Shown here one piece after another: positions 1-30,441 of a DNA stretch of 64,000 bases. Location: the NCBI GenBank assembly GCA_947570215.1, contig CANOTO010000001.1, positions 262,735-326,734 on the forward strand, written 5' to 3'. The stretch's first letter is position 1. The number at the start of each line of letters is the position of its first letter. A model generated the notes under the pieces. It made no database searches. It had not been told where the DNA came from and worked only from the letters and a program-made list of their open reading frames with translations. Made by a program: the position numbers and the translations under genes. This DNA comes from an uncultured Clostridia bacterium. GTDB taxonomy: Bacteria > Bacillota > Clostridia > Christensenellales > CAG-314.

Positions 1-52
1 GCGGTTGACACGACGCTTTTTGTGGGGGCACTTTGGAAAAGTTGACACGAAT

Positions 53-101
53 GGCAAAAAAGACGGCAACGAGATAGCTTACCGCTATCCATTGCCGTCT
101 T
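53..101 (-). terminator. Intrinsic terminator-like hairpin at the distal end of the RHS/orphan array
   Basis: Arms AAGACGGCAA (60-69) and TTGCCGTCTT (92-101). The A-run at 55-60 on + gives a U-run when read on the - strand, downstream of the last immunity ORF (177-410). Confidence 0.5.
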
Positions 102-134
102 TATTGTCCGCGCTTTCGGGAACTTTTCTTAGCT
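92..134. repeat. 43-bp direct repeat, copy A (distal boundary of the RHS island)
   Basis: TTGCCGTCTTTATTGTCCGCGCTTTCGGGAACTTTTCTTAGCT matches 7662-7704 with 3 mismatches, aligned by eye. Confidence 0.8.
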
Positions 135-176
135 TTATTTATTTTTCTATTCGGTTTATAAACTTTAATGTGATTG

Positions 177-410
177 CTACATTTCTCCGCGTCTTTCAAG
201 CAATACAAGTAATTTACTAATAATACTGTCCGCTTCTCTTCCCAAATCGTCAATATCACCTGTAACAACATCAAAGCCTATTAAATTACCTAACAAATCG
301 GTTAATTTTAGGATTTCCGTCTTAGATAATTTTGCTATTGAATCGCTTGATTTATAGTTACACTTACTAACTTTATTTATTAGTTCTATTTCCCTTTCTG
401 ATAATATCAT
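177..410 (-). CDS. Small protein; candidate immunity protein for orphan toxin tip 2
   Basis: 77-aa ORF whose ATG directly abuts the stop of the orphan tip ORF (411). It is AT-rich like the other cassette genes. No family recognised. Confidence 0.55.
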   Translation of the reverse strand: MILSEREIELINKVSKCNYKSSDSIAKLSKTEILKLTDLLGNLIGFDVVTGDIDDLGREADSIISKLLVLLERRGEM

Positions 411-878
411 TTAATATCTCCAAAATTTGGACCTTCTTGCCCAAGTTGAAACCACTTTGCCCTGTTGATTAAGTATAGTTACAGAATTCATACCACTAAA
501 TCTATACGTGTTTCTTGATACATCATATATAACTTCCGTGGGATTTCTCACTGCATCCAATATTTCTTGGGGGCTTACTCCGTGTCCATCTCTAAAAATT
601 GCTTGTTCTAATCCATGCTGAGTATATCCCGTAATATTATCCGGAGTTTGGTTTGCAACAGTACTTGAGTTTTGAGTCACTTCGTTAGTTAATTCCGCCG
701 TATTAACAGCTCTGCTTCTGCACAGGTACTTGATTGCGTTTATACTTGACGATATAAATAGAAATGCCGACGTGAAAAGGAATGCGTCTAATACCGCGTT
801 GCCTAACCCTTCCCACGTTAACGCTTGCTGCGTTAGTAATGATTCAAGCAGGTATCCGTCTATTCCGAAACCTATTCC
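411..878 (-). CDS. Orphan RHS C-terminal cassette 2 (pre-toxin helix + ~85-aa toxin tip); no ATG/RBS at its 5' end
   Basis: The frame is open from the TAG at 879-881 down to the stop at 411-413. It translates to GIGFGIDGYLLESLLTQQALTWEGLGNAVLDAFLFTSAFLFISSSINAIKYLCRSRAVNTAELTNEVTQNSS... This parallels RHS residues ...SLTMDGAVNAAMDAFLLSSIFVFITAGVNAIKYLCRSKPVTTAELANEVTQN. The ORF-track call 411..680 starts at an internal GTG. Confidence 0.7.
   Translation of the reverse strand, partial: GIGFGIDGYLLESLLTQQALTWEGLGNAVLDAFLFTSAFLFISSSINAIKYLCRSRAVNTAELTNEVTQNSSTVANQTPDNITGYTQHGLEQAIFRDGHGVSPQEILDAVRNPTEVIYDVSRNTYRFSGMNSVTILNQQGKVVSTWARRSKFWRY
766..839. repeat. 74-bp near-identical segment shared by the two orphan cassettes (copy in orphan 2)
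   Basis: GCCGACGTGAAAAGGAATGCGTCTAATACCGCGTTGCCTAACCCTTCCCACGTTAACGCTTGCTGCGT[T/C]AGTAA matches 2133-2206 with 1 mismatch. It encodes ...LLTQQALTWEGLGNAVLDAFLFTSA on the - strand. Confidence 0.85.
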
Positions 879-904
879 CTATACCAATTCCACTTACACT
901 AAAG

Positions 905-1285
905 TTAGCCAAATTGTTCTACTATTGTTTGCTCTTTCGTTTGTTCGTCGTAGAAATAATAATACGTGTGACAATCATCGCCCTTGACTTTTTCTTGATG
1001 ACTGAATACTAACGGTTTACCGTTTACAATTGGCCACTCCGGTGATTGCACCCAACGCGGATATGTTTTGTCATACTTGAACAATGCTTTAACTTTTTCT
1101 TTGCCAAACTTTATTTGTTGCGTTTTAGAAAGATTATTCGGTATTTCTTCTATAACTTTCTGAAAAACGTCATCGTTATTTATATCCAACCAAGTAACTG
1201 TAAACACTTCATCACGTTGTTTTATCTCACACAATTTTTTGTCTGCTTCTTTTTGTGAAATATAATAAATTTTATTTTCGTGCAT
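905..1285 (-). CDS. Hypothetical 126-aa protein in the orphan array; possible stray immunity gene
   Basis: ATG preceded by GGAGATTATCATT. The C-terminal ...YPRWVQSPEWPIVNGKPLVFSHQ... faintly recalls YwqG/DUF1963-type proteins seen in toxin loci. Function is inferred only from position. Confidence 0.5.
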   Translation of the reverse strand: MHENKIYYISQKEADKKLCEIKQRDEVFTVTWLDINNDDVFQKVIEEIPNNLSKTQQIKFGKEKVKALFKYDKTYPRWVQSPEWPIVNGKPLVFSHQEKVKGDDCHTYYYFYDEQTKEQTIVEQFG

Positions 1286-1409
1286 AATGATAATCTCCGA
1301 TTTATCTTATTATCTTATAAAAAGTTGCGTAATGGTCTCTCGTTAAATATACAGCATATCGATCACTTACAACAAATCTCGTACCGTCTCTCCCAATTCC
1401 TTCTATTGT

Positions 1410-1715
1410 TTATAAATTTACTTCCCAGTATGCATAGACTCCCATAGATATTTCCGTTGATGCAAATTTATATCCGCATTCTGTTTCGTATATATTTAAC
1501 AAATGCAACTGATGATAATGTCCATCATACCCAAAGCATATTTCATTTAGAAGTTTCGAATTCTTAGTTTTATATCCATTTATACGAAAATCATCATTAT
1601 GACTTATTCCTATAAATTTCGTATTATAGGCGACAAAATGTCTATCAAAGTTTTTGATTATTTGCGTTGCACGTTCTAAAAGCATTATTTCCCTTTTCGA
1701 CTCATACTCCACCAT
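1410..1715 (-). CDS. Candidate immunity protein for the TNT-like orphan tip
   Basis: 101-aa ORF that starts 15 bp after the stop of the TNT-like cassette. An in-frame TAA is followed by 35 further sense codons (1305-1409). Confidence 0.55.
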   Translation of the reverse strand: MVEYESKREIMLLERATQIIKNFDRHFVAYNTKFIGISHNDDFRINGYKTKNSKLLNEICFGYDGHYHQLHLLNIYETECGYKFASTEISMGVYAYWEVNL

Positions 1716-1729
1716 GATTTATACTCCTT

Positions 1730-2266
1730 CTAATAAATTAAATATCCTGCAATTTTTAACATATCAATCGGTTGCGGTAGCATATATTGTATTCCGCCAC
1801 CAACACCATTCCAAGGTGCCCACGCTGCAACCGTTGACTGAACAACGCCTTCAATCGGCTTAAGTACACGTATCTTTATATAAACACCGTCGTTCCAAGG
1901 TGGTAAAGACAGTTGCGATGCACTTGCTCCCGATTGAGTTATATAGTTACTTTGGCTACTTATTGTTCCATAACGCCCGTATGTTCCTGGCTGTAATGTT
2001 ATTGTCTGTTCTGTACCAACAACAGCTCCGTTATTCGGCGGATATATCTGTTGATCAAGAACAACAGTACTAACAGATTTGCTTCTGCACAAGTACTTTA
2101 TTGCGTTAATGCCGGAAGATATGAAAAGGAACGCCGACGTGAAAAGGAATGCGTCTAATACCGCGTTGCCTAACCCTTCCCACGTTAACGCTTGCTGCGT
2201 CAGTAACGAGCTTAAAAGGTGTCCTGCTACTCTGTTACTTATACCATCGCCAGTTTTATTGCATTC
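1730..2266 (-). CDS. Orphan RHS C-terminal cassette 1: pre-toxin helix + TNT-like (NAD+ glycohydrolase family) toxin tip
   Basis: The frame is open from the TAA at 2267-2269. It translates to ECNKTGDGISNRVAGHLLSSLLTQQALTWEGLGNAVLDAFLFTSAFLFISSGINAIKYLCRSKSVSTVV... The tip carries GTYGRYG...LSLPPW...YIKIRVLKPIEG...WAPWNGVGGGIQYMLP, which matches the TNT-domain pattern (RyG, sLP, VlKP, PWfgqpGGGxQY). No RBS/ATG at the 5' end. Confidence 0.7.
   Translation of the reverse strand, partial: ECNKTGDGISNRVAGHLLSSLLTQQALTWEGLGNAVLDAFLFTSAFLFISSGINAIKYLCRSKSVSTVVLDQQIYPPNNGAVVGTEQTITLQPGTYGRYGTISSQSNYITQSGASASQLSLPPWNDGVYIKIRVLKPIEGVVQSTVAAWAPWNGVGGGIQYMLPQPIDMLKIAGYLIY
2133..2206. repeat. 74-bp near-identical segment shared by the two orphan cassettes (copy in orphan 1)
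   Basis: See 766-839. Confidence 0.85.
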
Positions 2267-2303
2267 TTAGATGATTTTTATCAAATTCTTTGTTTTATAT
2301 TTG

Positions 2304-2663
2304 TTAAAGCTGACAATCTATTCTAAGACAAATTATTTCAAGAAAATCTCCATTTCTTACTTCTCTTGGAAAAGCTTCGTCTATTTCAATATTAAACCCG
2401 AAAACTTTGACGATCTTTTGATCTATGTCTACTACTCTACCTATAATTTTGTACTCATAATAGCCGTCTAATTTAGATATCAGCATATTTTTAGTGTCAA
2501 TTTTTTTGATGTTCCTGATGAAACAGGATATCAATCTAAAATTGGAACAACCAATATTTATTTTCGAAGTTGCCATACATAACAACTGATGTTCTCCGTC
2601 TGTTACTTTCACATCATACTCAAATCCAGCACCATCATAATCCGTAATCTCAGCTACATACAT
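2304..2663 (-). CDS. Candidate cognate immunity protein of the resident RHS toxin tip
   Basis: 119-aa ORF that starts 16 bp downstream of the RHS stop on the same strand. It is AT-rich. No family recognised. Confidence 0.6.
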   Translation of the reverse strand: MYVAEITDYDGAGFEYDVKVTDGEHQLLCMATSKINIGCSNFRLISCFIRNIKKIDTKNMLISKLDGYYEYKIIGRVVDIDQKIVKVFGFNIEIDEAFPREVRNGDFLEIICLRIDCQL

Positions 2664-2678
2664 ATAAATTATACTCTC

Positions 2679-5600
2679 CTATAATACTCTTGGAAAATAC
2701 GTCGTAATATACAATCCGTTTCTTTCTAAGCCAACGAAATGATACAGCTTTTTGCCTTTTGAAGTTACCCTAAAAAACATTGCATATCCGTTCATTTCAG
2801 ACACATACGTACCATTATTTATTACATAATTCGCGCCCTGCAGATATTCTTGCGAGTTACTATACATTCCCTTAAATTGACTTCCGTGTTTTGCAAAATG
2901 TTCTTCTAATTTGACTTGTGACTCAAACTCTAAATACTTGTTTTGCGTTACTTCGTTAGCCAATTCCGCCGTAGTAACAGGTTTGCTTCTGCAAAGATAC
3001 TTTATTGCGTTTACACCTGCAGTAATGAACACAAATATCGACGACAATAAGAATGCATCCATTGCTGCGTTTACTGCGCCGTCCATTGTTAATGACCGAC
3101 GATTTAATAACGATGTTACCGCCCACATTGCCAAGCCAAAGCCAACGCCTAACACCATTTCCGTTAATATTGCCACGACGGAACCATGCGACATGATTGT
3201 TATGCCGACCGCCAACATTAACACCAAAGTTCCCCAGACCAGTTTTGATTCGGCAGGCAGCTTATTAAACCTACGCACCCATTGAGCTATCTTCATCTCT
3301 ACCTTGGTTAGCCAAGTGTATTTTGGTGTATAAGTCGTATCTGCCGCCAGCTCACAAGTGGTATATATATTGTGCGGATTACCCGCCAATTCAAGTATAT
3401 TGTCGCACAATAAGCCTGTTCTGTCAAGCCTGCGCGCTGTGAAGACGTCGCTGAAAATGCTTTCGATAGGGGCTGCATCTATATACGATACCGTAGCAGG
3501 ATCGTAAAAACTGCCGTTGGCGTAATACAAACCCGTATCCGTATCGTAGTAAAAGCCTTTCCATCTAAACGGATTGATATTACCAATCGACGTTGGGTCG
3601 GTATCTATCTCGTTATCTGCGTTGTAAACGGTGCAATTACCGAAAATATCGTATTCGTAACGGGCGACTATACGGTCTGTAAGCGAATCTATAAGCATAA
3701 TTACATTGCCTTGACTGTCTAAGACATACTCGTAATCGACATCGTTGTAACTTACAAAATTTAAGCCTGTTAAATCATACATAAACCTTAATGCATAACT
3801 ATTGCCGCCGTAAATATCTACGCCGAGAATTTTGTTACCGTCCAAAAGGAATTTCGCGGTTGATCCGTTATTTATTTTCTTGCATAAAACGCCGTTTTGA
3901 TTGTAGGAATAATGTATGCTTCCGGCTTGAATCAGCTGTCCGCCGCGGGCGTATTTATATTCCGTTACAAGCAAATCGTTGTGGCCATTCCGCTTTTCTA
4001 TTCTGTTGCCGTAGGTGTCGTACTTGTATGTATAATCGCCTACGCGGGACATTTGTCCCAAGGAATTGTAATTAAAATCAATATCTTTTCCTTTGATAGT
4101 TGCGTGCGATATTCGTCCGTCGTCATTGTATCTTACATGCTGAGTACTAACGACTCCGTTTTTGTTAACTTCAACGTCTGTTAGCCGTTCCAAGCTGTCA
4201 TAGTTAAACGAAGATTTGACAGTTTGGTTCAACTCCCATTCCTGTTCTTCATGATTTTTCTGTCCTACCCACAATTTTGACGACTTCAATTTGCCGTCGT
4301 TATAGTAATCTAACTCGTCAACTGTTTTAACCAACTGCTTGTATGCGGGCGAAAAAGAACGGTCTCCATATTCGAACAGGACACACTGCAAACGGCTCTT
4401 TCCTGCCAAATCAACATAATCATAATTCGTTGTCGTGTGATGGCAGTATTTCGCCGATAAACGTCCGAATTCATCATAAGAATATTTAAGCGGATTATAA
4501 TGCGACCAAAGGTCATCTGTTACTTCACTATATTTACGGTGTAATTTCGTTTCTACTACTCGCGGAGACAAGATTTTTTCGGAGTCGTCTGTTATCTCGG
4601 TCATATATTCAATTCCAAGACCGAAACTATACTTCGTTACGTTGTCGGATATCTTCTGGACTTTGACATTTTCCGTTCCGTCGCCGTTCTTTTCTTCCCA
4701 GCGCATAAGTTCGCCGTCGTCGTTATAATAGTAGTCGGTAATTGTGCCGTTATCGTTATCGGTATGTGTTGTAAGAAGCGCTGTAAAAACGCTTTCATTC
4801 GGGCTGTCATATACGTACGTATTTCGGACTTCGCCGCCCTGCGCATTCTTGTGAGTCACGGCATTTATCTTGCCGTATTTGGTAAGCTCGGTCGTTACGC
4901 TGTCCTTTACCGCGTTATCTTCGTAAAATTCGCTGCGGTGTTTTTGGCTTATATAGCTGCCGCGGTCGTTTTCAACACTGTCACGCTGAATAAGTTTTTC
5001 CGCGCCTGCTTTATCGAACTGCGTATACTCTACCGTATTGTGTGCAAGGTTGTACTTTACGCCGTACTTGGCGAGCCCGTCCGAGACGGTACGTATACGC
5101 CCCTGCTCGTAGGTTGCGTCTCGGCGAGATAATTGTTTGCCGTTGTTATATTCGGTAACGGCAAGCGTATTATTACGGAAAACGCCGTAACTGTTAGTAA
5201 CGTTGTGCGAAGTAGACTGGAAACCGCCGTTTACAACCTTGCCTTCCGTAACCGTGCCAACTTGGTCGTATTCGGTATAGTCAACCGATTGCCCCGTTAC
5301 ACCGACGTGAGATCGCAGCAATCGTCCTTCGTCGTCGTACCGATAATACGTTACCGAACCGACCGTTCCGCGCGAACCTACGAGTTCGGCTTTTGTCAAG
5401 TCGCCGTAGTCGTTGTATTCGTAATTTTTACTTACACCGTATTCGTCCGTTTCTTTGAGCGTTTTTCCATAGTAATCTATTTCGACAGTGGCGGATGAGC
5501 TGACGCCTTCGCGGCAACCTACGGTTTCTACCGTAATACTTCGCGGTCCGTACTTATACGTTGTGGTTATTTCCGTTTTACCGTCCGGCATATACATCTT

Positions 5601-7535
5601 CACGGAAGGACTGAACGACGGTTCGTACTTAACGCCGTTGTCATCAAACGCTATTTGTTCGACGTTAGGTATCCGTTTCGTACCATTATTGCAAACCAAG
5701 TCGAACAAGCGATGATAGCTTATAGAATATGTTTTTGTAACACGATTTCTTACAGAAGCAAGTACGTCGCTTTCCGTAAAGTAAATTTGCTCGTCTAATA
5801 CGCATTCTTTTGTATCACAGGATGCGTCTTCCCGAACTGTCGTCAACGTAAACTTGCTCAATTGCGACATCGGGGCAGCTAATATGTAATATAATTCCGT
5901 ATAGGGCGCGGGAGCGAAACCTATTTCGCTAAACTCGTACGCGCCCGTATAAGGCTGATTGTTGTTTAGTAATTGGACTTTCAAATAGGACAGCGTGTCC
6001 GTTTTAGTGTCGTCGCGTTTCTTGAGCGGAGCGTAAATAGACAAGGACACCCTTTGCCAAGCGTTTGCCGCCTTGCCGTCTAAAAGCGTTACGCTCGTCT
6101 GCTCGCTTGCTGTTGAAAACTTATAGACAATCTTTGCCTGCATATACTTTGACTTTGCCGATGCGGGAAGCTTGAGCCAGAAAGAATAGTCGAACGTGCG
6201 CAAGCCTTGTTCTTTATCGCTGCGGGTTACTTCGAATTTTGCATTATCGAGTACAGTATAAATTCCGTTAACGGTAAAGGCTGTTTCTTGGTTGATTCTC
6301 GCGGTAGATACTCCGCCCATATCAATACCCGTAGTCTTTGCTCCTTGTTTTTCTAACGTATACAGTTTATTAGATATCTTTTCGAATGAGCTTACAACGC
6401 AGGCGTCGCGGTTGATGAAGTACGCAAGCTTTATACCGTCGTGATTAGTTACGTGCGTTTCGGAAGATACAAGCGTATCTCCGCCGTTGTAATTGTAGGT
6501 GTACGAATTGCTCGACTTGGTTATAAATTCCGCCTGGGCAGGCGCGCCGCAGTACAGCCCGATACCGCAAGCAAGATAGTTGCCGTCGGCGTCCGTCATG
6601 CCCATTCCTACCGAGTGGCTCTTGATAACGCCCTGCTCTACCTTAGATATCTTGCCGCCGTCATACGTAAACCTGTACGCCGACTTGGTTTCAAGGTCGG
6701 TTGCCTGCGTTAACAGCCCGTTGGCGTACTCAAAGCCGAGCGACGGCGTTACAAGGCACTGCGCACCCTTGCGGTTGTACGCAACCCTGTCTGCTTGAAT
6801 AAGACTGCCGTTTGCATCGTATCGGTAGTTTACGCTTGAAAGTATTTTACCGGCGTACGCCGTTGCGGATGATAGGCGACCAACTTCGTCATAACCGAAC
6901 TCGATATATGCTCCGATATGATAGATTGTATGCGAAACTTGCTTTCTCATACGGTAATCGTACGCTTTTACTAAGCGGTTTCGCTCGTCGTATTCGTACG
7001 ACTTCATCATAGTATTTTTATGACACGACACTGTTTTGTTCACTCTGCCCTGTCTGTTGAAATATATACGGTTGCCTGCGCCGTCTTCTATGTAAATGCT
7101 ATCAAAAGTACTATCTCCGCTTACGTTAAGAGTAACTTTGGCATTACGTTCGTCGTAATAACGCCCGTCGGCATACTTTACAAAACGGTGTACTTCGCCC
7201 GATTCGTCCATATACAATACGGTAGAACCGTCCGTTTGCAGCAAATACTGCGCCACGTTAAGCTTCCAGCCGCCTGCAAGCTCGGGGAATTGCTTGACAA
7301 ACGCCGAAAAATGTTGACTTAGGTAGACGTGCCCTACGTTAACGGCAAAGTTGCCGTAGCCTACGCTTAAATCGTCAAACGAATAACGCAGCCTGCCCGT
7401 AGCAAGGTTGACGGCAGGGTTGTCGCCCATATCCGCTTGCGAATAGTCGGTAGTCGCCATCTTGCTTGTTCCGCCACCGAAAAAATCTTCGTACGAACCG
7501 TGTACGGCTTGTAATTTGTTTAATTCTTTATACAT
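2679..7535 (-). CDS. RHS/YD-repeat polymorphic toxin (1618 aa) with a C-terminal swappable toxin tip
   Basis: Many YD repeats are visible (YEYDERNRL, YRYDANGSL, YEYNDYGDL, YRYDDEGRL, YSYDEFGRL, YKYDTYGNR). The RHS-associated core ends ...YEYDIFGN...NPFRWKGFYYDTDTGLYYANGSFYDPATVSYID. Hydrophobic helices follow, then the tip with EEHFAKHGSQFKG...TTYFPRVL. RBS AAGGAGAAATT precedes the ATG. Confidence 0.9.
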   Translation of the reverse strand: MYKELNKLQAVHGSYEDFFGGGTSKMATTDYSQADMGDNPAVNLATGRLRYSFDDLSVGYGNFAVNVGHVYLSQHFSAFVKQFPELAGGWKLNVAQYLLQTDGSTVLYMDESGEVHRFVKYADGRYYDERNAKVTLNVSGDSTFDSIYIEDGAGNRIYFNRQGRVNKTVSCHKNTMMKSYEYDERNRLVKAYDYRMRKQVSHTIYHIGAYIEFGYDEVGRLSSATAYAGKILSSVNYRYDANGSLIQADRVAYNRKGAQCLVTPSLGFEYANGLLTQATDLETKSAYRFTYDGGKISKVEQGVIKSHSVGMGMTDADGNYLACGIGLYCGAPAQAEFITKSSNSYTYNYNGGDTLVSSETHVTNHDGIKLAYFINRDACVVSSFEKISNKLYTLEKQGAKTTGIDMGGVSTARINQETAFTVNGIYTVLDNAKFEVTRSDKEQGLRTFDYSFWLKLPASAKSKYMQAKIVYKFSTASEQTSVTLLDGKAANAWQRVSLSIYAPLKKRDDTKTDTLSYLKVQLLNNNQPYTGAYEFSEIGFAPAPYTELYYILAAPMSQLSKFTLTTVREDASCDTKECVLDEQIYFTESDVLASVRNRVTKTYSISYHRLFDLVCNNGTKRIPNVEQIAFDDNGVKYEPSFSPSVKMYMPDGKTEITTTYKYGPRSITVETVGCREGVSSSATVEIDYYGKTLKETDEYGVSKNYEYNDYGDLTKAELVGSRGTVGSVTYYRYDDEGRLLRSHVGVTGQSVDYTEYDQVGTVTEGKVVNGGFQSTSHNVTNSYGVFRNNTLAVTEYNNGKQLSRRDATYEQGRIRTVSDGLAKYGVKYNLAHNTVEYTQFDKAGAEKLIQRDSVENDRGSYISQKHRSEFYEDNAVKDSVTTELTKYGKINAVTHKNAQGGEVRNTYVYDSPNESVFTALLTTHTDNDNGTITDYYYNDDGELMRWEEKNGDGTENVKVQKISDNVTKYSFGLGIEYMTEITDDSEKILSPRVVETKLHRKYSEVTDDLWSHYNPLKYSYDEFGRLSAKYCHHTTTNYDYVDLAGKSRLQCVLFEYGDRSFSPAYKQLVKTVDELDYYNDGKLKSSKLWVGQKNHEEQEWELNQTVKSSFNYDSLERLTDVEVNKNGVVSTQHVRYNDDGRISHATIKGKDIDFNYNSLGQMSRVGDYTYKYDTYGNRIEKRNGHNDLLVTEYKYARGGQLIQAGSIHYSYNQNGVLCKKINNGSTAKFLLDGNKILGVDIYGGNSYALRFMYDLTGLNFVSYNDVDYEYVLDSQGNVIMLIDSLTDRIVARYEYDIFGNCTVYNADNEIDTDPTSIGNINPFRWKGFYYDTDTGLYYANGSFYDPATVSYIDAAPIESIFSDVFTARRLDRTGLLCDNILELAGNPHNIYTTCELAADTTYTPKYTWLTKVEMKIAQWVRRFNKLPAESKLVWGTLVLMLAVGITIMSHGSVVAILTEMVLGVGFGLAMWAVTSLLNRRSLTMDGAVNAAMDAFLLSSIFVFITAGVNAIKYLCRSKPVTTAELANEVTQNKYLEFESQVKLEEHFAKHGSQFKGMYSNSQEYLQGANYVINNGTYVSEMNGYAMFFRVTSKGKKLYHFVGLERNGLYITTYFPRVL

Positions 7536-7572
7536 AATTTCTCCTTGTTTTTTTGTTACGTTCCGTCAGCCG

Positions 7573-7613
7573 AAATTAAAACGTTTTAGCTGCGCGCCGC
7601 TAAACGCGTTTTT
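7573..7613 (-). terminator. Terminator-like hairpin T2 between the Com-like gene and the RHS start
   Basis: Arms AACGTTTTAGC (7580-7590) and GCTAAACGCGTT (7599-7610). On the - strand the hairpin is followed by UUUUAAUUU. Confidence 0.5.
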
Positions 7614-7620
7614 ACCCAAG

Positions 7621-26383: not shown

Positions 26384-26656
26384 TTAATGGGGCGTTGTGT
26401 GTCGTCAATTAAGTTTTCTTTATTTATATGAGTTCTATTAAATAAATTTGTATGAGAAATGAAATTATCACGGGTATTGACACGGTGTGGTATAATGTAA
26501 TTAGGGAAAGTGATTATTCATAGCGAACGCACTACACAATGTAACGCGTTCGCTTGTTTATTGTTACGTAACATTCAAACTGTGGGGCCTGAATTAAATT
26601 TACGTTGTTCAATATATTACTTTCCTGTATTTTACAAAAAGGAGAAATATATAATT

Positions 26657-27244
26657 TTGAATGTGTTTGATAATATCAGAGACAAAGTGTTAAGCCTGTT
26701 CAATCAAAACGGTTGGATAAAGTGGATACATGAAGGAACAATGCGAGCCTACGACAACGAGGATAAAAAGTCAAATATAATATATGCAAGTAAAAGTAAT
26801 CACTGCGCCAAATGCCTTAATATGAACGGTTGCTGCTTTCCTAGAAATAATATGCCGAATTATCCGTTGCATTACAACTGCCATTGTTGGTTAATGCCTG
26901 TAAACAATATACATTTTGAAGCAACAAGTACTAACGAGAAATTTACTATAAATATTTTCAATCCAACGGAAACGAACGGCAAAATTGTGTTGTTTGAAAG
27001 TTTAGGATATGATAAAATGGATTATGAAATGCTAATTGATTTGTATTGCAAACAGGCCAAAGAAAAATACTCTAACGGGGATTTTATTTTAGGTAAGTTA
27101 GACAACTTTGGTCAACGTATCAATATTGTCATTGCATTACCAAGTAAAGATGGAAGCCGAATTAAATATGTTAAGTCGGCTTGGATGGTCTATCCTGACG
27201 GAAAAATCAAATTAATAACCGCAGACGGAGGGAAAGTAAAATGA
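26657..27244 (+). CDS. MuF C-terminal stub fused to an uncharacterised ~115-aa C-terminal domain (candidate toxin, module A)
   Basis: The probable start is TTG at 26657, about 12 nt after GGAG. The ORF-track start at 26510 lies upstream of a leader hairpin. CAKCLNMNGCCFPRNNMPNYPLHYNCHCWLMP matches the C..C..lnG.vF...P.HpNCrC end of phage Mu F / SPP1 gp7 head-morphogenesis proteins. The rest of the protein belongs to no family I can name. Confidence 0.6.
   Translation: MNVFDNIRDKVLSLFNQNGWIKWIHEGTMRAYDNEDKKSNIIYASKSNHCAKCLNMNGCCFPRNNMPNYPLHYNCHCWLMPVNNIHFEATSTNEKFTINIFNPTETNGKIVLFESLGYDKMDYEMLIDLYCKQAKEKYSNGDFILGKLDNFGQRINIVIALPSKDGSRIKYVKSAWMVYPDGKIKLITADGGKVK
26786..26928. repeat. 143-bp perfect direct repeat, copy 1
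   Basis: Checked base by base against 29589-29731: identical. It covers the MuF CxxC...HxNCxC motif. Confidence 0.95.
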
Positions 27245-27639
27245 AAGAATATGATTATATAAAGTTATTGGTTGAAAAAGAGCGATATGCCAAAGACAAC
27301 GTACATAAAGGCATGACGGGATGGATATGCGACGAAAGAATAATAAATGATTGTCGTCTAGTTTGTTTTGATAATTGTGATTTGGAAGACTATCCTATAA
27401 TCTCCATTAAAATCGAAGACATGGAAGTAATTTGGAGCGCACCGACAAAAGACATCGGTACTGAAGTCATTTTATCCGTCAGCAATTACGAGAATATCGG
27501 ACTACATAGAGGACTGAAAGGAACAACCATTGCAAAAGGTGAAAAAGACAATCAATGGATTGTACGTTTTCACAAACAAGACGGGTTACAGCAAGAAACA
27601 GAATGTACACTTAACGAAAGCGACATAGTAATTATCTAA
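27241..27639 (+). CDS. Small protein with two SH3-like halves; candidate immunity/antitoxin of module A
   Basis: ATGA overlap with the upstream stop. The two halves (YDYIKLLVEKERYAKDNVHKGMTGWICDE...VCF and GTEVILSVSNYENIGLHRGLKGTTIAKG...VRF) look like an internal duplication. It is a paralogue of 30043-30441. Confidence 0.65.
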   Translation: MKEYDYIKLLVEKERYAKDNVHKGMTGWICDERIINDCRLVCFDNCDLEDYPIISIKIEDMEVIWSAPTKDIGTEVILSVSNYENIGLHRGLKGTTIAKGEKDNQWIVRFHKQDGLQQETECTLNESDIVII

Positions 27640-27640
27640 A

Positions 27641-27671
27641 ATTCGTTTTAGGTTGTGAATACCCCACCATA
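27641..27671. repeat. 31-bp module-end repeat containing the CCCACCATA core (middle copy)
   Basis: ATTCGTTTTAGGTTGTGAATACCCCACCATA versus 30441-30471 ATTCGTTTTAGGTTATCTAATTCCCACCATA. Confidence 0.7.
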
Positions 27672-28157
27672 ATAAACCCATAACCCATTATTTTTGACTT
27701 CAACATCATTTAACGCTGATTGTATCATCGTTGAAAATGCTGATATTCCCCATGTCTCCCAAGCGCCTTTTATGTTTTCCGCCACGATGTTGATAATATT
27801 AGTTCTTAATGTGTAATACGATGTATTCTGAATAAATAATTCACCATAAGTTTCAGTCGCGCGCGGTGCTATCGTTAAAGTATCGTAAAGTGCTTTTTCT
27901 ACTACGTATTTAGTAATATCTAACTCTTTTATAAAACCGCTTTCATTATTTGTAATTGAAAACAGTCCTACATTTAAGCCATAACGTATAGTACCACTTA
28001 CGCTTCCGCTTGCTAAGATAGTAGATGCGTTGATTAGTATTTTGTTGATATGGTCGATTTTTTGGTTTGTAATAATCTGACAATTATTTGTTGTGATTTT
28101 TGAACTGCTGCTACGTGGGGTTATCCACGCATTATTTGCCGGAAAAATAGATGCCAT
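27648..28157 (-). CDS. Hypothetical protein (169 aa), AT-rich island gene
   Basis: Long ORF with GGAGAAGAAAAT upstream of the ATG. No motif recognised. Confidence 0.5.
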   Translation of the reverse strand: MASIFPANNAWITPRSSSSKITTNNCQIITNQKIDHINKILINASTILASGSVSGTIRYGLNVGLFSITNNESGFIKELDITKYVVEKALYDTLTIAPRATETYGELFIQNTSYYTLRTNIINIVAENIKGAWETWGISAFSTMIQSALNDVEVKNNGLWVYYGGVFTT

Positions 28158-28207
28158 ATTTTCTTCTCCTTATTGACATTTAATGATTTTTAATGTATAT
28201 TTTGATT

Positions 28208-28585
28208 ATGAAACGATTAAACAAAAAGCAGATTGTCTTCGGCTCAATCGCATTAGGTTGCCTTTTATTTTTAATCTATATCCTTATCTGCCCTTTGGGT
28301 TATTTAAGCAATAGATATTTTTGTTACTTTTCAGAGCAACACAAAATTATGAGCGTTGGATTTGGAACAAAGTTTGACAGAAGTGGCTTTGACAATCCTT
28401 TTGTTGTGTTAGGTTATATTAACGTTCCACAAGTCGTTATCTTTTGTGCTATATCACTGATTTTGATTGCTTGCATCGTACTTGTTTGTAAAAATACGCC
28501 CCGTCGCCCGACTAAGGCGGAACGCCTGCAAGCACAAATCGACGAACTGCAACAGCAGGTTGACGAGTTGAAGAAAGGGGACTAA
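28208..28585 (+). CDS. Hypothetical two-TM membrane protein with a C-terminal coiled coil
   Basis: MKRLNKKQIVFGSIALGCLLFLIYILICPLGY..., a second TM segment VVIFCAISLILIACIVLV, and the tail AERLQAQIDELQQQVDELKK. Confidence 0.5.
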   Translation: MKRLNKKQIVFGSIALGCLLFLIYILICPLGYLSNRYFCYFSEQHKIMSVGFGTKFDRSGFDNPFVVLGYINVPQVVIFCAISLILIACIVLVCKNTPRRPTKAERLQAQIDELQQQVDELKKGD

Positions 28586-28678
28586 CTCCCCTTTCCTTAT
28601 GCTGCTTCATCATTGTGCATTAAAAAAGGACGATGCCTATCGCCCTTAATTTTTATATTAAAAAAGATTGACGTCTGC

Positions 28679-28863
28679 TGTGAACCCCAAAAGTTGGATA
28701 AATAATATAGTTAGATTTGATGTGAATGAGTTCGGTACTGTACCGGACTCATTCCGTTTAGTGTTAGAGATATTCTCTTGTTATTCCAATAGTTGATGTA
28801 CTCTTTCAGACGGTGGACGAATTCGTCCACTGTCTGAAACTTTTCACCATAGTACATTATCGT
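28679..28863 (-). mobile_element. IS3-family insertion-sequence remnant (3' end of the transposase ORF plus a putative terminal inverted repeat)
   Basis: The C-terminal ~50 codons read ...YYGEKFQTVDEFVHRLKEYINYWNNKRISLTLNGMSPVQYRTHS, the typical IS3/IS150 OrfB tail. TGTGAACCCCAAAAGTTGGA at 28679 is a plausible IR starting with TG. The rest of the IS is absent. Confidence 0.6.
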
Positions 28864-29472
28864 CGTGTAATTGCCCGAGTTAGTCAACCGCGGTATTGCG
28901 TCTATGACCGCCCCGATTTGCACAAGGCACTCCCACAACGTCGTTTGCGTGTTCCACTTAAACTGCGGAGACTTAATATTCTTTAACGCATACACCACCT
29001 TGTTTTCAACCGTCAACGAATATTGCGCGGTTTCGCTTTGTCCGTAGTCGAACGGGACAATATCGAGCAACCGCGTTACAACGTCAAACAAGCTGTCGCG
29101 CTTATCTACCGCTTCGGGCTGCGTTACGCCTATGCCGTCTATCAACACGCCTTCAAGTGTTTTACTTGGCTCTACCAGTGCCACTTCGTGCGAATATATG
29201 CCCTGTTCGTCATCGTCCGCTCGAGCCAACGCTCTGTTGTCCGTCCCCACATACCAAAAGATTTCCCATTCCGTCGGAGAATACCGTACGCTTACGTTGT
29301 AATGCGCAAGCGGGGCGACCATACCTTTGCCGTGCGCTTCCGTCTTCAAATACCGCAGCGTTCCGCTGTCTAACTCTGCACCCAACTGAAACACTAAATC
29401 TATCGGCGACTTGGCTCGCAATTCGCTCTCTAAGCCGCCTTCATTTTTCAACAATCTTGCTTCTACGCTCAT
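28711..29472 (-). pseudogene. Chimeric ORF: N-terminal ~200 aa of a phage tail/minor structural protein fused in frame to the IS3 transposase tail
   Basis: The start MSVEARLLKNEGG follows AGGTGGACAA. The middle part ...YSHEVALVEPSKTLEGVLIDG...SLFDVVTRLLDIVPF...PQFKWNTQTTLWECLVQIGAVIDAIPRLT resembles N-terminal regions of siphophage tail-tip proteins. The junction is near 28863. Confidence 0.5.
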
Positions 29473-29588
29473 TTGTCCACCTACCTGTTTTGCCCGGACA
29501 GATATCCCGCGCGCCGAGCCAATTCGCTTGCGTTGCGGTTCTGCCACATAATCGGTGTGTGATATTCTTGTAAAAGAGTGCATGCGCG

Positions 29589-29731
29589 GCAAGTAAAAGT
29601 AATCACTGCGCCAAATGCCTTAATATGAACGGTTGCTGCTTTCCTAGAAATAATATGCCGAATTATCCGTTGCATTACAACTGCCATTGTTGGTTAATGC
29701 CTGTAAACAATATACATTTTGAAGCAACAAG
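29589..29731. repeat. 143-bp perfect direct repeat, copy 2
   Basis: Identical to 26786-26928. Confidence 0.95.
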
Positions 29732-30059
29732 CAATTTGCGTAAGTTCGAAGAATATGCTTTAAAATTCAAACCCGTAAACGATAAAAGTGGATTGTTTTT
29801 AAAATGGGGCTATGATATAATGGATGCAGATTGGTTATTGCAAGAATATTGCCGTCAAGCGCAGGAAAAATATGCTAACGGAAAATTTACTCGTTTTAAA
29901 TTAGATGACTTCGGCCAGCATATAAATATTAAAATAACATTGCCACGCAAAGACGGGAAAGGCAGTGTCACATTAACGTCGGGTTGGTTAGTATACCCCG
30001 ACGGAGAGATTAAGCTAACAACACCATATGGAGATAAGGAATATGAAAGAATACGATAG
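29625..30059 (+). CDS. 5'-truncated paralogue of the MuF-stub/unknown-domain gene (module B)
   Basis: The frame is open from 29574, and the first ATG at 29625 lies inside the 143-bp repeat. The C-terminal domain ...WGYDIMDADWLLQEYCRQAQEKYANGKFTRFKLDDFGQHINIKITLPRKDGKGSVTLTSGWLVYPDGEIKLTTPY is homologous to module A but diverged. No RBS is seen upstream. Confidence 0.55.
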   Translation: MNGCCFPRNNMPNYPLHYNCHCWLMPVNNIHFEATSNLRKFEEYALKFKPVNDKSGLFLKWGYDIMDADWLLQEYCRQAQEKYANGKFTRFKLDDFGQHINIKITLPRKDGKGSVTLTSGWLVYPDGEIKLTTPYGDKEYERIR

Positions 30060-30441
30060 CGTAAAACTAACAGTAGAAAAAGAAAAATACGCCAAAGAGG
30101 GCGTGCACAAGGGAATGATCGGCTGGATATGCGACGAAAGAATAATAAACGAGCAACGATTGGTTTGCTTTGACGGAGGAGAGGTATCTCCCTTTCCCAT
30201 ATTACCGATTAAAGAATACGATTTAGAAGTCGTATGGGAATCGCACGAAAGGCAAGTAGGAGACAAAGTTCTTTTTTTGTCGGAACAGTACAAAAACGTA
30301 GGCATTGCAAAAGGATTGCGAGGCGTATTGATTGCCAAGTTGGAAAATAACAAATGGACAATCCGTTTTCACAAACAAGACGGATTACAACAAGAATGTG
30401 ATTTGACGGTTGACGGAAACGATTTTATAGTTGACAATTAA
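30043..30441 (+). CDS. Small protein with two SH3-like halves; candidate immunity/antitoxin of module B
   Basis: MKEYDSVKLTVEKEKYAKEGVHKGMIGWICDERIINEQRLVCFDGG... is a clear paralogue of 27241-27639. The start was trimmed from 30028 to the ATG at 30043 by analogy, and follows GGAGATAAGGAAT. Confidence 0.65.
   Translation: MKEYDSVKLTVEKEKYAKEGVHKGMIGWICDERIINEQRLVCFDGGEVSPFPILPIKEYDLEVVWESHERQVGDKVLFLSEQYKNVGIAKGLRGVLIAKLENNKWTIRFHKQDGLQQECDLTVDGNDFIVDN

Follow-up and report, generated by a model that had tools for sequence, protein, structure and literature searches.

How does a very large toxin with no recognisable export signal come to place an enzyme inside another cell? The question is raised by a 1618-amino-acid (aa) protein of the rearrangement hotspot (RHS) type encoded in a 64,000-nucleotide (nt) stretch of an uncultured Clostridia bacterium (assembly GCA_947570215.1, contig CANOTO010000001.1, positions 262,735 to 326,734), hereafter the window. 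Between the RHS core and the variable C-terminal tip of this protein lies a block of three hydrophobic helices, which we call the module. We analyzed the protein, its relatives (cited by P numbers) and their loci (L numbers) computationally, and propose from sequence that the module is a translocation device borne on the cargo, which would carry the enzyme tip across the membrane of the target cell and would not serve export; whether this account holds as a whole we regard as evenly balanced. The positions of all features are collected in Table 1.

A reading of the window made earlier from the sequence alone had placed three hydrophobic stretches between core and tip, and three methods bore this out. 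In a Kyte-Doolittle scan with a 19-residue window, aa 1430-1514 formed the sole stretch of the RHS protein above 1.6. Hessa-type sums, taken without regard to position, fell below 3 kcal/mol only in the module region (minima of +1.3 to +2.9, against a protein median of 20); the helices are thus moderately, not extremely, hydrophobic. AlphaFold2 (AF2) modeling of the 249-aa cargo from a 14-sequence alignment placed helices at cargo residues 39-56, 59-79, 84-108, and 115-146, with a predicted local distance difference test score (pLDDT) of 70-85. The lengths given in the sequence-only reading also held: the linker from the core end (aa 1358) to the first transmembrane helix (TM1), put at about 70 aa, is 73 aa, and the tip, put at about 95 aa, is about 91-95 aa.

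A profile of the module (A1; 158 positions, from LDRxGL to NAIKYLCRSKP) was searched in 1.84 billion cluster-representative proteins; 131 of these matched with E<1e-3, and 74 had E<1e-10. Nearly all matches with at least 40 upstream residues were collinear with the C-terminal part of the RHS family, the exceptions being nine short fragments and one N-terminal fragment, and in full-length proteins the module lies at about aa 1350-1570. Among 54 non-redundant modules, polar positions inside the helices were conserved, namely the mid-TM2 E/Q/D, the GxGxG motif, and an invariant Asp in TM3. Because conservation extends to these polar positions, the module is more than a greasy spacer. Charges were also patterned across the 54 sequences, loop 1 being neutral and Gly-rich, loop 2 acidic, and the flank after TM3 basic (2.4 Lys/Arg and 0 Asp/Glu). 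Insertion from outside, with the membrane potential as driving force, would agree with this pattern and fit it better than insertion outward from within the producer.

The cargo region (aa 1370-1618) had no Pfam or NCBIfam match at E<=1, the pre-toxin domains PT-HINT, PT-TG, and PT-VENN included. Our literature searches, which covered subscription papers only in part, returned no description of a membrane module after the core of RHS toxins, and the comparative survey of polymorphic toxins by Zhang et al. 2012 (PMC3482391) has no such module in that place.

Past the module, the proteins diverge. Cargo homologues have a common stretch from LDRxGL to NAIKYLCRSKP and then differ completely; 100 tips found after the module fell into 28 BLAST clusters. 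A membrane block that is conserved while the sequence downstream varies, as the sequence-only reading envisaged, is what the homologues have (131 clusters of module and at least 28 of tip, meeting at NAIKYLCRSKP). The module is followed by 95-130 residues, or by about 220-265 where a PT-HINT domain intervenes, as it does downstream of the module in 17 of 100 module-bearing relatives. Tip clusters could be assigned to barnase, YwqJ-type deaminase, TNT NADase, LHH nuclease, Tox-REase-9, GIY-YIG, and PT-HINT with a toxin. By these assignments, every assignable tip is predicted to act on cytoplasmic targets. The alignments indicate that tips are evidently swapped by recombination at the 3' edge of the module.

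Two orphan cassettes with module remnants and other tips lie downstream of the RHS gene, and a 179-nt repeat (700-878, 2067-2245, and 2971-3149) is common to the main gene and both cassettes. It had been claimed that the cassettes keep exactly the last helix and the junction; the junction is indeed kept, but the remnants reach further and include the end of TM2 and loop 2 as well as TM3. Both belong to a module allele type (TQQALTWEGLGNAVLDAFLFTSAFLFISS) other than that of the main gene. In P0004 the tip of orphan cassette 2 is fused to a more complete module that begins just before TM1. One cassette position (784-1308) is occupied in the window by a 126-aa gene (905-1285) and in a 97%-identical strain (L001 16222-16634) by a 132-aa gene with a weak Barstar match, a difference which suggests recent exchange of a cassette or immunity gene.

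The tip of the main gene also occurs after PT-HINT or Gly-rich linkers in other proteins, and is therefore a mobile toxin domain in its own right. Against the PDB it gave non-significant matches only, among them 8ey4, a CdiA-CT, at E 0.37 with a common H-x-x-K-H-G-x-E-F helix. The fit to the signature of Ntox26 (Zhang et al. 2012, PMC3482391) was loose; both are leads only. The 119-aa immunity candidate encoded next to it has a maximum 19-residue Kyte-Doolittle value of 0.96, hence no TM helix, and matched nothing in Pfam or PADLOC.

The 1618-aa protein is an RHS polymorphic toxin by shell fold and cassette organization, with a variant cleavage motif. Its gene has a ribosome-binding site (RBS), AAGGAG, 5 nt ahead of the ATG. 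Homologues of full or nearly full length numbered 21 (1288-1764 aa, 32-100% identity); for most of them RHS_repeat (PF05593) or TEN_YD-shell (PF25023) matches had been precomputed, and reading frames were intact in at least 21 homologues. The AF2 model of aa 1-1200 (pLDDT 73) consisted of nearly all beta-hairpins, and Foldseek matched it to Rhs cocoons of type VI secretion systems (T6SS), Tse5, RhsA, Tse15, teneurins, and TcB-TcC at E 1e-29 to 1e-18 (Tse5, E 3e-26). A closed YD/RHS beta-shell is thus indicated by the fold and by the domains of the homologues; the protein's own RHS_repeat match was weak (E 0.03). In the model, one strand-rich part of the shell region may form a domain of its own, such as one for binding at the shell surface. 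The combination of variable toxin, downstream immunity gene, and orphan cassettes that marks the RHS family is present at the locus.

In the module alignment neither the D nor the R of LDRxGL varies, and nor do a Cys and an Asn that come after them (LDRxGLxCNN or LDRNGLxCNN; aa 1370-1377, window 3405-3428). From likeness to the RHS family we infer, and assume in what follows, that the cargo would be cut off autocatalytically and held in the shell. The GLLC that follows the cleavage motif was considered as a lipobox and rejected, the -1 residue being Leu or Met. The family is small, comes nearly all from metagenome assemblies, and is so far almost confined to Christensenellaceae and related Clostridia metagenome-assembled genomes; a metagenome scan added just one further locus.

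A Kyte-Doolittle scan found no hydrophobic N-terminal segment or signal peptide in the RHS protein, the first 40 residues being polar. Pfam and NCBIfam searches, which also took in the N-terminal 142 aa separately, returned no trafficking or anchoring domain (PAAR, LXG, and others), only weak DUF6531, RHS_repeat, and Rhs_assc_core matches, and a PADLOC scan of the protein and neighboring genes had no match. The sequence-only reading had likewise seen neither a signal nor a known trafficking domain at this end. In the family alignment, 8-45 variable, polar, and often Gly-rich residues (about 10 in P0023) precede the conserved block TNYSQADxGDNPxVNLATGRL, where DUF6531 starts; AF2 pLDDT was <50 across aa 1-78. 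No known export signal was found in the RHS protein or in 24 family members that start at or before this block, including 7 extra full-length representatives from the module profile search, whereas distant Bacillota RHS proteins in the same match list had Sec-type N-termini and Pseudomonas T6SS proteins had N-terminal TM regions. Because the signal is absent across the family, its absence is a family trait and not the product of a mis-called start. A double-glycine leader reading of MYKELNKLQAVHGSYEDFFGG was ruled out, as the N-termini of relatives are variable and one has about 10 residues before the conserved block.

The features of known delivery systems were also sought, with genomic context taken as 10-kb flanks. 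For T6SS Rhs effectors, there was no PAAR match and no N-terminal hydrophobic segment, and T6SS or DUF1795 genes were absent from the flanks of 8 loci. For WapA, there was no Sec signal in the protein or the 24 family members and no wall-binding domain in Pfam or NCBIfam. For type VIIb secretion (T7SSb), only the 8-45 variable residues precede DUF6531, LXG or WXG matches were lacking, and the flanks examined held no FtsK/EssC or WXG100 genes. For the BC component of Tc toxins, Pfam gave no SpvB or beta-propeller domain, and no TcA-like gene was present in any locus examined; the shell fold alone is common to both. As far as sequence searches can tell, the family shows that large Bacillota RHS toxins exist without a Sec, T7SS, or T6SS address.

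The sequence-only reading had tied the module to this missing export signal, a link that comparison with the relatives did not support. Members without the module (P0018, P0019, P0022, P0026, and P0027, and orphans in L003 and L023) have glycine-zipper hydrophobic C-termini, followed by immunity proteins with two TM helices. They share the shell, N-terminus, LDRxGL motif, and partner genes of module-bearing members, and export therefore cannot depend on the module; the same layout, moreover, occurs with Sec-type N-termini. In module-bearing loci the immunity candidates are soluble and change with the tip, and there is no conserved membrane immunity gene. This distribution argues that an enzyme which has to pass a membrane would need the module, whereas a toxin aimed at the membrane itself would not.

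Outside the family, hydrophobic segments follow the core motif in 16 of 18 more distantly related Bacillota RHS proteins (P0032-P0049), and 8 of the 18 have Sec-type N-termini. In the two proteins checked, the helices are followed by DUF4258 (P0034) and Ntox44 (P0046). These helices are unrelated in sequence to the module, and its profile does not find them; the succession of core, helices, and toxin looks like a general design of Bacillota RHS proteins, a mirror image of the N-terminal TM domains that T6SS prePAAR effectors have (P0050-P0054).

We propose the following route. The cargo, cut off at LDRxGL, would be kept in the shell, which would hide the hydrophobic helices. The particle would be released and reach a rival cell, where the amphipathic helix would bind the anionic membrane surface. 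The TM1-TM2 hairpin would then insert, and TM3 with the basic C-terminal flank would cross, pulling the enzyme tip into the cytoplasm; PT-HINT, in the roughly 17% of cargos that have it, would then cut the tip free. From inside the cargo, the module would play the part that falls to the N-terminal TM domains in T6SS prePAAR effectors or to the T-domain in diphtheria toxin. Release from the producer would be independent of the module and would use a lysis- or holin-type route with phage-derived partners, the more weakly inferred and weakest part of the account, in which a collagen-like fiber may be the targeting subunit and a Com-like zinc-ribbon regulator would act on a conserved RNA element. 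The size of the cargo (249 aa) and a shell fold like that of toxin-encapsulating Rhs/Tc cocoons count in favor of this route. There are precedents for hydrophobic cargo in Rhs/YD shells, namely Tse5 (PMC10684867) and BiTLP (PMC13018210).

Several results weigh against translocation by the module. The AF2 cargo model had an overall pLDDT of only 59, and Foldseek with this low-confidence model found no PDB match at E<1. A positive-inside analysis found both the N- and C-terminal flanks of the module to be basic, which gives no clean topology, and the conserved acidic residues within the helices could also belong to a toxin that forms channels. Of the 10 largest tip clusters scanned, 4 were without an assigned activity, that of the window among them. 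Finally, the canonical DPxGL is replaced by LDR(T/N)GL, and the first catalytic Asp site (IDAAP here) is Asn in several glycine-zipper relatives.

The sequence-only reading had offered two roles for the module, translocation of the tip into the target or its secretion from the producer; the former fits better, and the latter fared poorly. In a producer, the helices could be an internal signal-anchor or a tail-anchor, and expose or export the tip in place of an N-terminal signal, which is absent from every family member. The basic flank before TM1 and the short neutral loop 1 do fit an N-in orientation, three spans would put the tip outside, and PT-HINT after the module could free it there. However, glycine-zipper members with the same shell, N-terminus, and partners do without the module, and RHS proteins already equipped with a Sec signal show the same layout. 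Against the membrane potential, the basic flank that follows TM3 would need to move outward. The helices are only moderately hydrophobic by the Hessa-type sums. A tip of some 95 aa lying at the producer membrane under the cell wall could not reach the cytoplasm of a rival, where the assigned tips act, and the 1370-aa shell would be left without a role. We consider an anchor in the producer unlikely.

Alternatively, the module could itself be a pore-forming or ionophoric toxin, with the enzyme tip as a second warhead. That family relatives carry glycine-zipper membrane toxins lends this some plausibility, as do the conserved polar and acidic residues and GxGxG inside the helices and the membrane-acting hydrophobic cargos known in Rhs/YD shells (Tse5, PMC10684867; BiTLP). 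A dual toxin seems improbable nonetheless, since those relatives have TM immunity proteins, whereas the module-bearing loci have soluble, tip-dependent candidates and no conserved membrane immunity gene. In addition, the orphan cassettes keep only a fragment of the module, and so the tip is what is exchanged and matched by immunity.

A role without any membrane, in which the block is a structural or packaging stuffer, or a plug that keeps the cargo unfolded in the shell, appears quite improbable, since it leaves the strict pairing with cytoplasm-acting tips unexplained. The helix lengths of 17-25 residues and the interfacial helix rich in Trp and basic residues are also membrane-like, known Rhs/Tc cargos need no such element, and the glycine-zipper relatives lack the module. 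The cargo of known Tc and Rhs cocoons is unfolded, as such a role would have it, and the conserved linker and module do always stand directly after the cleavage motif. That the RHS protein is not exported at all, being part of an intracellular system such as abortive infection or a decaying remnant, is very unlikely: the missing export signal and the phage-like regulators nearby would agree with it, but there were no PADLOC matches, frames are intact in at least 21 homologues, and orphan tip and immunity arrays with strain-to-strain cassette differences are a hallmark of interbacterial polymorphic toxins.

We return to target-membrane translocation and to how the particle would leave the producer. 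The sequence-only reading had pointed to the neighborhoods of homologues as a place to look for a conserved partner, and there zinc-ribbon and fiber-like genes were found, with a holin in one clade. The window, L001-L012, L017, and L018 all have a zinc-ribbon gene (55-61 aa) upstream of the RHS gene, in at least 5 unrelated chromosomal contexts; the linkage holds between RHS proteins only 35-40% identical, and in L005 and L006 the gene abuts or overlaps the RHS start. Pfam Zn_ribbon_Com matched its product only at E 0.08, below the cut-off. Of 9 distinct loci, 8 have the fiber gene linked to the RHS gene; it stands directly upstream of that gene (L008/L012, L013/L016, L015, L017, and L024) or beyond the cassettes, at the array's far end (L001-L004, L010, L006, and L023). 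Its product is signal-less and collagen-like, with conserved N- and C-terminal domains, and its best tail-fiber PHROG match lies outside the collagen part (phrog_3904, E 1e-18); the fiber family is tiny, with 14 clusters, and these adjoin RHS genes. These partner genes are probably domesticated phage-derived parts and not a prophage, and the fiber could be a targeting subunit. They are better leads to the delivery route than the module.

Taken together, these genes outline a particle made of phage parts and free of any secretion system, released by lysis or a holin, aimed by the fiber, switched by a Com-like protein on an RNA element, and armed with a three-helix translocon in its cargo. We think this full picture doubtful. 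The holin is limited to one clade (L008/L009/L012) and absent from other loci, and no lysis gene was found in the 64-kb window. The fiber call rests on PHROG profile matches, partly through collagen repeats. There were no relatives of the RHS N-terminus or the fiber in 50,697 phage genomes, and none of the RHS protein in IMG/VR. If true, such a particle would amount to a general cargo-internal solution of the Bacillota to toxin import.

Locus L017 (56-3111, 9139-12754) has four unassigned genes before the RHS gene, of which one weakly matches 'virion structural protein' and one DUF7934; the genes upstream of RHS in this locus are at best weakly phage-like. A second fiber-like fragment and two multi-pass membrane proteins follow the RHS gene. 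This locus may represent a more complete ancestral gene module.

A conserved cis element accompanies the zinc-ribbon gene. It consists of a box with the consensus AAGAAAAG(T/A)TCCCGAAAGCG(C/A)GGAC and a hairpin with an invariant lower stem (AAAGACGGCA / TGCCGTCTT), usually followed by a U-run; the upper stem covaries, with double changes at 8 of 21 predicted pairs. The element stands a few nt after the stop codons of zinc-ribbon or immunity genes and ahead of the fiber gene. The 64-kb window has two copies, and the element was seen in L001-L010, L012, L017, and L023, which takes in every family locus of at least 10 kb with a zinc-ribbon gene; none was found in loci without that gene (L013/L016, L015, and L024/L025). 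An Rfam scan of window positions 1-8300 gave no family match. The element may mark a cassette boundary, or it may be a regulated terminator to whose RNA the zinc-ribbon protein binds. A hairpin over the RHS start in the manner of Mu com/mom was not seen; the RBS was unsequestered in the minimum free energy fold, and the hairpin in the spacer is terminator-like.

Table 1. Features of the RHS locus and its partner genes. Positions are nucleotides of the window unless a locus is named; KR and DE, Lys plus Arg and Asp plus Glu residues per sequence.
Feature	Residues (aa)	Position	Strand	Basis or remark
RHS/YD-shell polymorphic toxin gene	1-1618	2679-7535	minus	open reading frame (ORF), RBS, homologues, AF2 model
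N-terminal 28 aa, short, polar, Gly-rich, not conserved	1-28	7452-7535	minus	hydropathy, family alignment
DUF6531-like region, shell start	42-118	7182-7412	minus	Pfam PF20148 E 7.6e-5 (N-terminal fragment), slightly under curated cut-off
Strand-rich shell segment, possibly a separate domain	~420-550	5886-6278	minus	AF2 secondary structure, pLDDT ~74-89
RHS-associated core, ...NPFRWKGFYYDTDTGLYYANGSFYDP...	1295-1358	3462-3653	minus	NCBIfam TIGR03696 E 3.3e-4, profile positions 1-52 of 76, sub-threshold
LDRTGL, variant of DPxGL autocleavage motif; cargo begins after it	1370-1375	3411-3428	minus	module alignment
Acidic cargo linker, LCDNILELAGNP...DTTYTP	1376-1407	3315-3410	minus	conserved motifs; family KR 1.1, DE 5.1
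Trp- and Lys/Arg-rich amphipathic helix	1408-1431	3243-3314	minus	AF2 helix at cargo residues 39-56; family KR 3.2, conserved Trp
Three-helix hydrophobic module, between RHS core and tip	1432-1511	3003-3242	minus	hydropathy, Hessa-type sums, AF2, profile
TM1, LVWGTLVLMLAVGITIM	1432-1448	3192-3242	minus	followed by short Gly-rich loop
TM2, VVAILTEMVLGVGFGLAMWAVTSLL, mid-helix E/Q/D and GxGxG	1453-1477	3105-3179	minus	followed by acidic loop
TM3, AAMDAFLLSSIFVFITAGVNAI, invariant Asp	1490-1511	3003-3068	minus	
Recombination junction, NAIKYLCRSKPVTTAELAN, basic	1509-1527	2955-3011	minus	homology between proteins with differing tips stops here
Variable tip, putative toxin domain (91 aa), HFxKHGxxF...YLQGANYVINNG motif	1528-1618	2682-2954	minus	no Pfam match
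Candidate cognate immunity gene, 119 aa, soluble		2304-2663	minus	directly downstream; same place in L001/L002
Orphan cassette 1, module remnant (end of TM2 to junction) and TNT NAD-glycohydrolase tip		1730-2245	minus	Pfam TNT E 2.4e-10
Orphan cassette 2, module remnant (mid-TM2 to junction) and small tip		411-878	minus	repeat and translation
Candidate immunity gene of orphan cassette 2		177-410		
Cis element copy 1, box AAGAAAAGTTCCCGAAAGCGCGGAC and terminator-like hairpin		7630-7700	minus	between zinc-ribbon and RHS genes
Cis element copy 2		60-130	minus	after last orphan immunity gene, in front of fiber gene
Com-like Cys4 zinc-ribbon gene, 56 aa, MKYVNCPVCGHKLLEG...VRVKCSKCKTIVEV		7707-7877	minus	PHROG 6417 'translational regulator' E 8.9e-7
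Collagen-like fiber gene		~166 nt beyond window coordinate 1; L001 17584-18564		position from 97%-identical strain
Fiber-like genes in other loci		L008 8662-9588; L015 9402-9989; L016 2190-3131; L024 2005-2484		
Holin, 125 aa, directly upstream of RHS gene		L008 9604-9981; L009 1626-2003; L012 9523-9897		PHROG 6918 E 6e-8; Pfam Phage_holin_6_1 weak

Comparison with known systems separates what is familiar here from what is not. T6SS prePAAR effectors with TM domains (Tse6 and class I RhsA) are said to have been described by Quentin in 2018 and Ahmad in 2020. As here, hydrophobic helices are joined to an RHS or other carrier; they presumably insert into the cytoplasmic membrane of the target and bring a cytoplasm-acting toxin across, and need shielding until delivery. 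In prePAAR effectors, however, the helices are N-terminal, outside the shell, chaperoned by Eag, and beside the prePAAR/PAAR region for T6SS loading, an arrangement also seen at the N-termini of the Pseudomonas RHS proteins P0050-P0054; here they are C-terminal, in the presumed cleaved cargo, presumably shielded by the shell, and fused directly to the tip. A structure of RhsA is available (PMC8765631). Tse5 (PMC10684867) and BiTLP, a teneurin-like protein of Bacillus (PMC13018210), have a hydrophobic, membrane-active C-terminal fragment surrounded by a cocoon with the same fold, and the glycine-zipper members look alike. There the hydrophobic part is the toxin; in the present family it is a conserved adaptor, with at least 28 interchangeable soluble enzyme tips behind it. 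Delivery differs too, in that Tse5 goes through the T6SS and signal peptides are present in most teneurin-like proteins.

The Sec-dependent RHS toxins of Bacillota, of the WapA type, were reportedly the subject of work by Koskiniemi in 2013, and we know of no pre-toxin membrane module in WapA. Such toxins resemble those described here in having C-terminal nuclease tips, immunity genes, and orphan cassettes (S. suis WapA, PMC12704120). They differ in their Sec signal and wall-binding domains, the present family having neither signal nor anchor. Tc (ABC) toxins and the type X secretion system (PMC10847048) offer parallels in large signal-less or poorly exported toxins, an RHS cocoon (Tc), phage-derived lysis for release, and a separate targeting subunit. 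In contrast, there is no TcA-like translocator, SpvB domain, or beta-propeller here, the holin is in one clade only, and translocation would be by the cargo. Large clostridial toxins are released in a holin-dependent manner through TcdE.

Like the module, the pre-toxin domains PT-HINT, PT-TG, and PT-VENN (PMC3482391) and the entry domains of CdiA-CT are conserved segments between carrier and toxin that mark the junction and are thought to act in processing or entry; none of them is a multi-helix membrane segment. The Com protein of phage Mu is a translational activator of mom. As with the zinc-ribbon protein here, it is a small Cys4 zinc ribbon encoded immediately upstream of, or overlapping, the gene it is presumed to control. 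The likeness is limited by the Pfam Com match of E 0.08, by the unsequestered RBS of the RHS gene in the predicted fold, and by a box and terminator-like hairpin that are repeated after several genes. The carrier and the tips are thus known; what is new is a cargo-borne membrane module that is absent from Pfam and NCBIfam, together with phage-derived partners in place of a known export address.

Membrane translocation was named a major outstanding question for toxins in a 2026 review (PMC13460014). The entry of cytoplasm-acting protein toxins into Gram-positive targets is such an open question, and the module is a compact candidate defined by sequence, about 100 residues that precede tips of the nuclease, deaminase, or NADase kind and are missing from toxins directed at the membrane. 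If the proposal is correct, the module would be a portable tag for protein delivery. The tie between signal-less RHS toxins and phage-derived fiber, holin, and regulator genes points to an undescribed route of release and targeting. The layout of core, helices, and toxin is apparently common in Bacillota RHS proteins and is filed in neither Pfam nor NCBIfam, and has therefore been overlooked by annotation pipelines.

The surroundings of the locus are ordinary chromosome, with sugar ABC transporter genes (L001) and an amylase/pullulanase-type gene. The near-identical locus and relatives come from uncultured Christensenellaceae of the mouse gut. The G+C content falls from about 45-47% in the body of the RHS gene to 36-39% over its 3' end and the downstream cassettes. 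A second low-G+C islet lies at 26510-30441 (37% at 26-28 kb), with two DUF6883 ORFs, a pair of small paralogous ORFs (MKEYDYIKLLVEKERYAKDNVHKGMTGWICDERII...), and, at 28711-29592, a fragment of an integrase core (rve_2); this islet could be a further cassette region of the toxin/immunity type.

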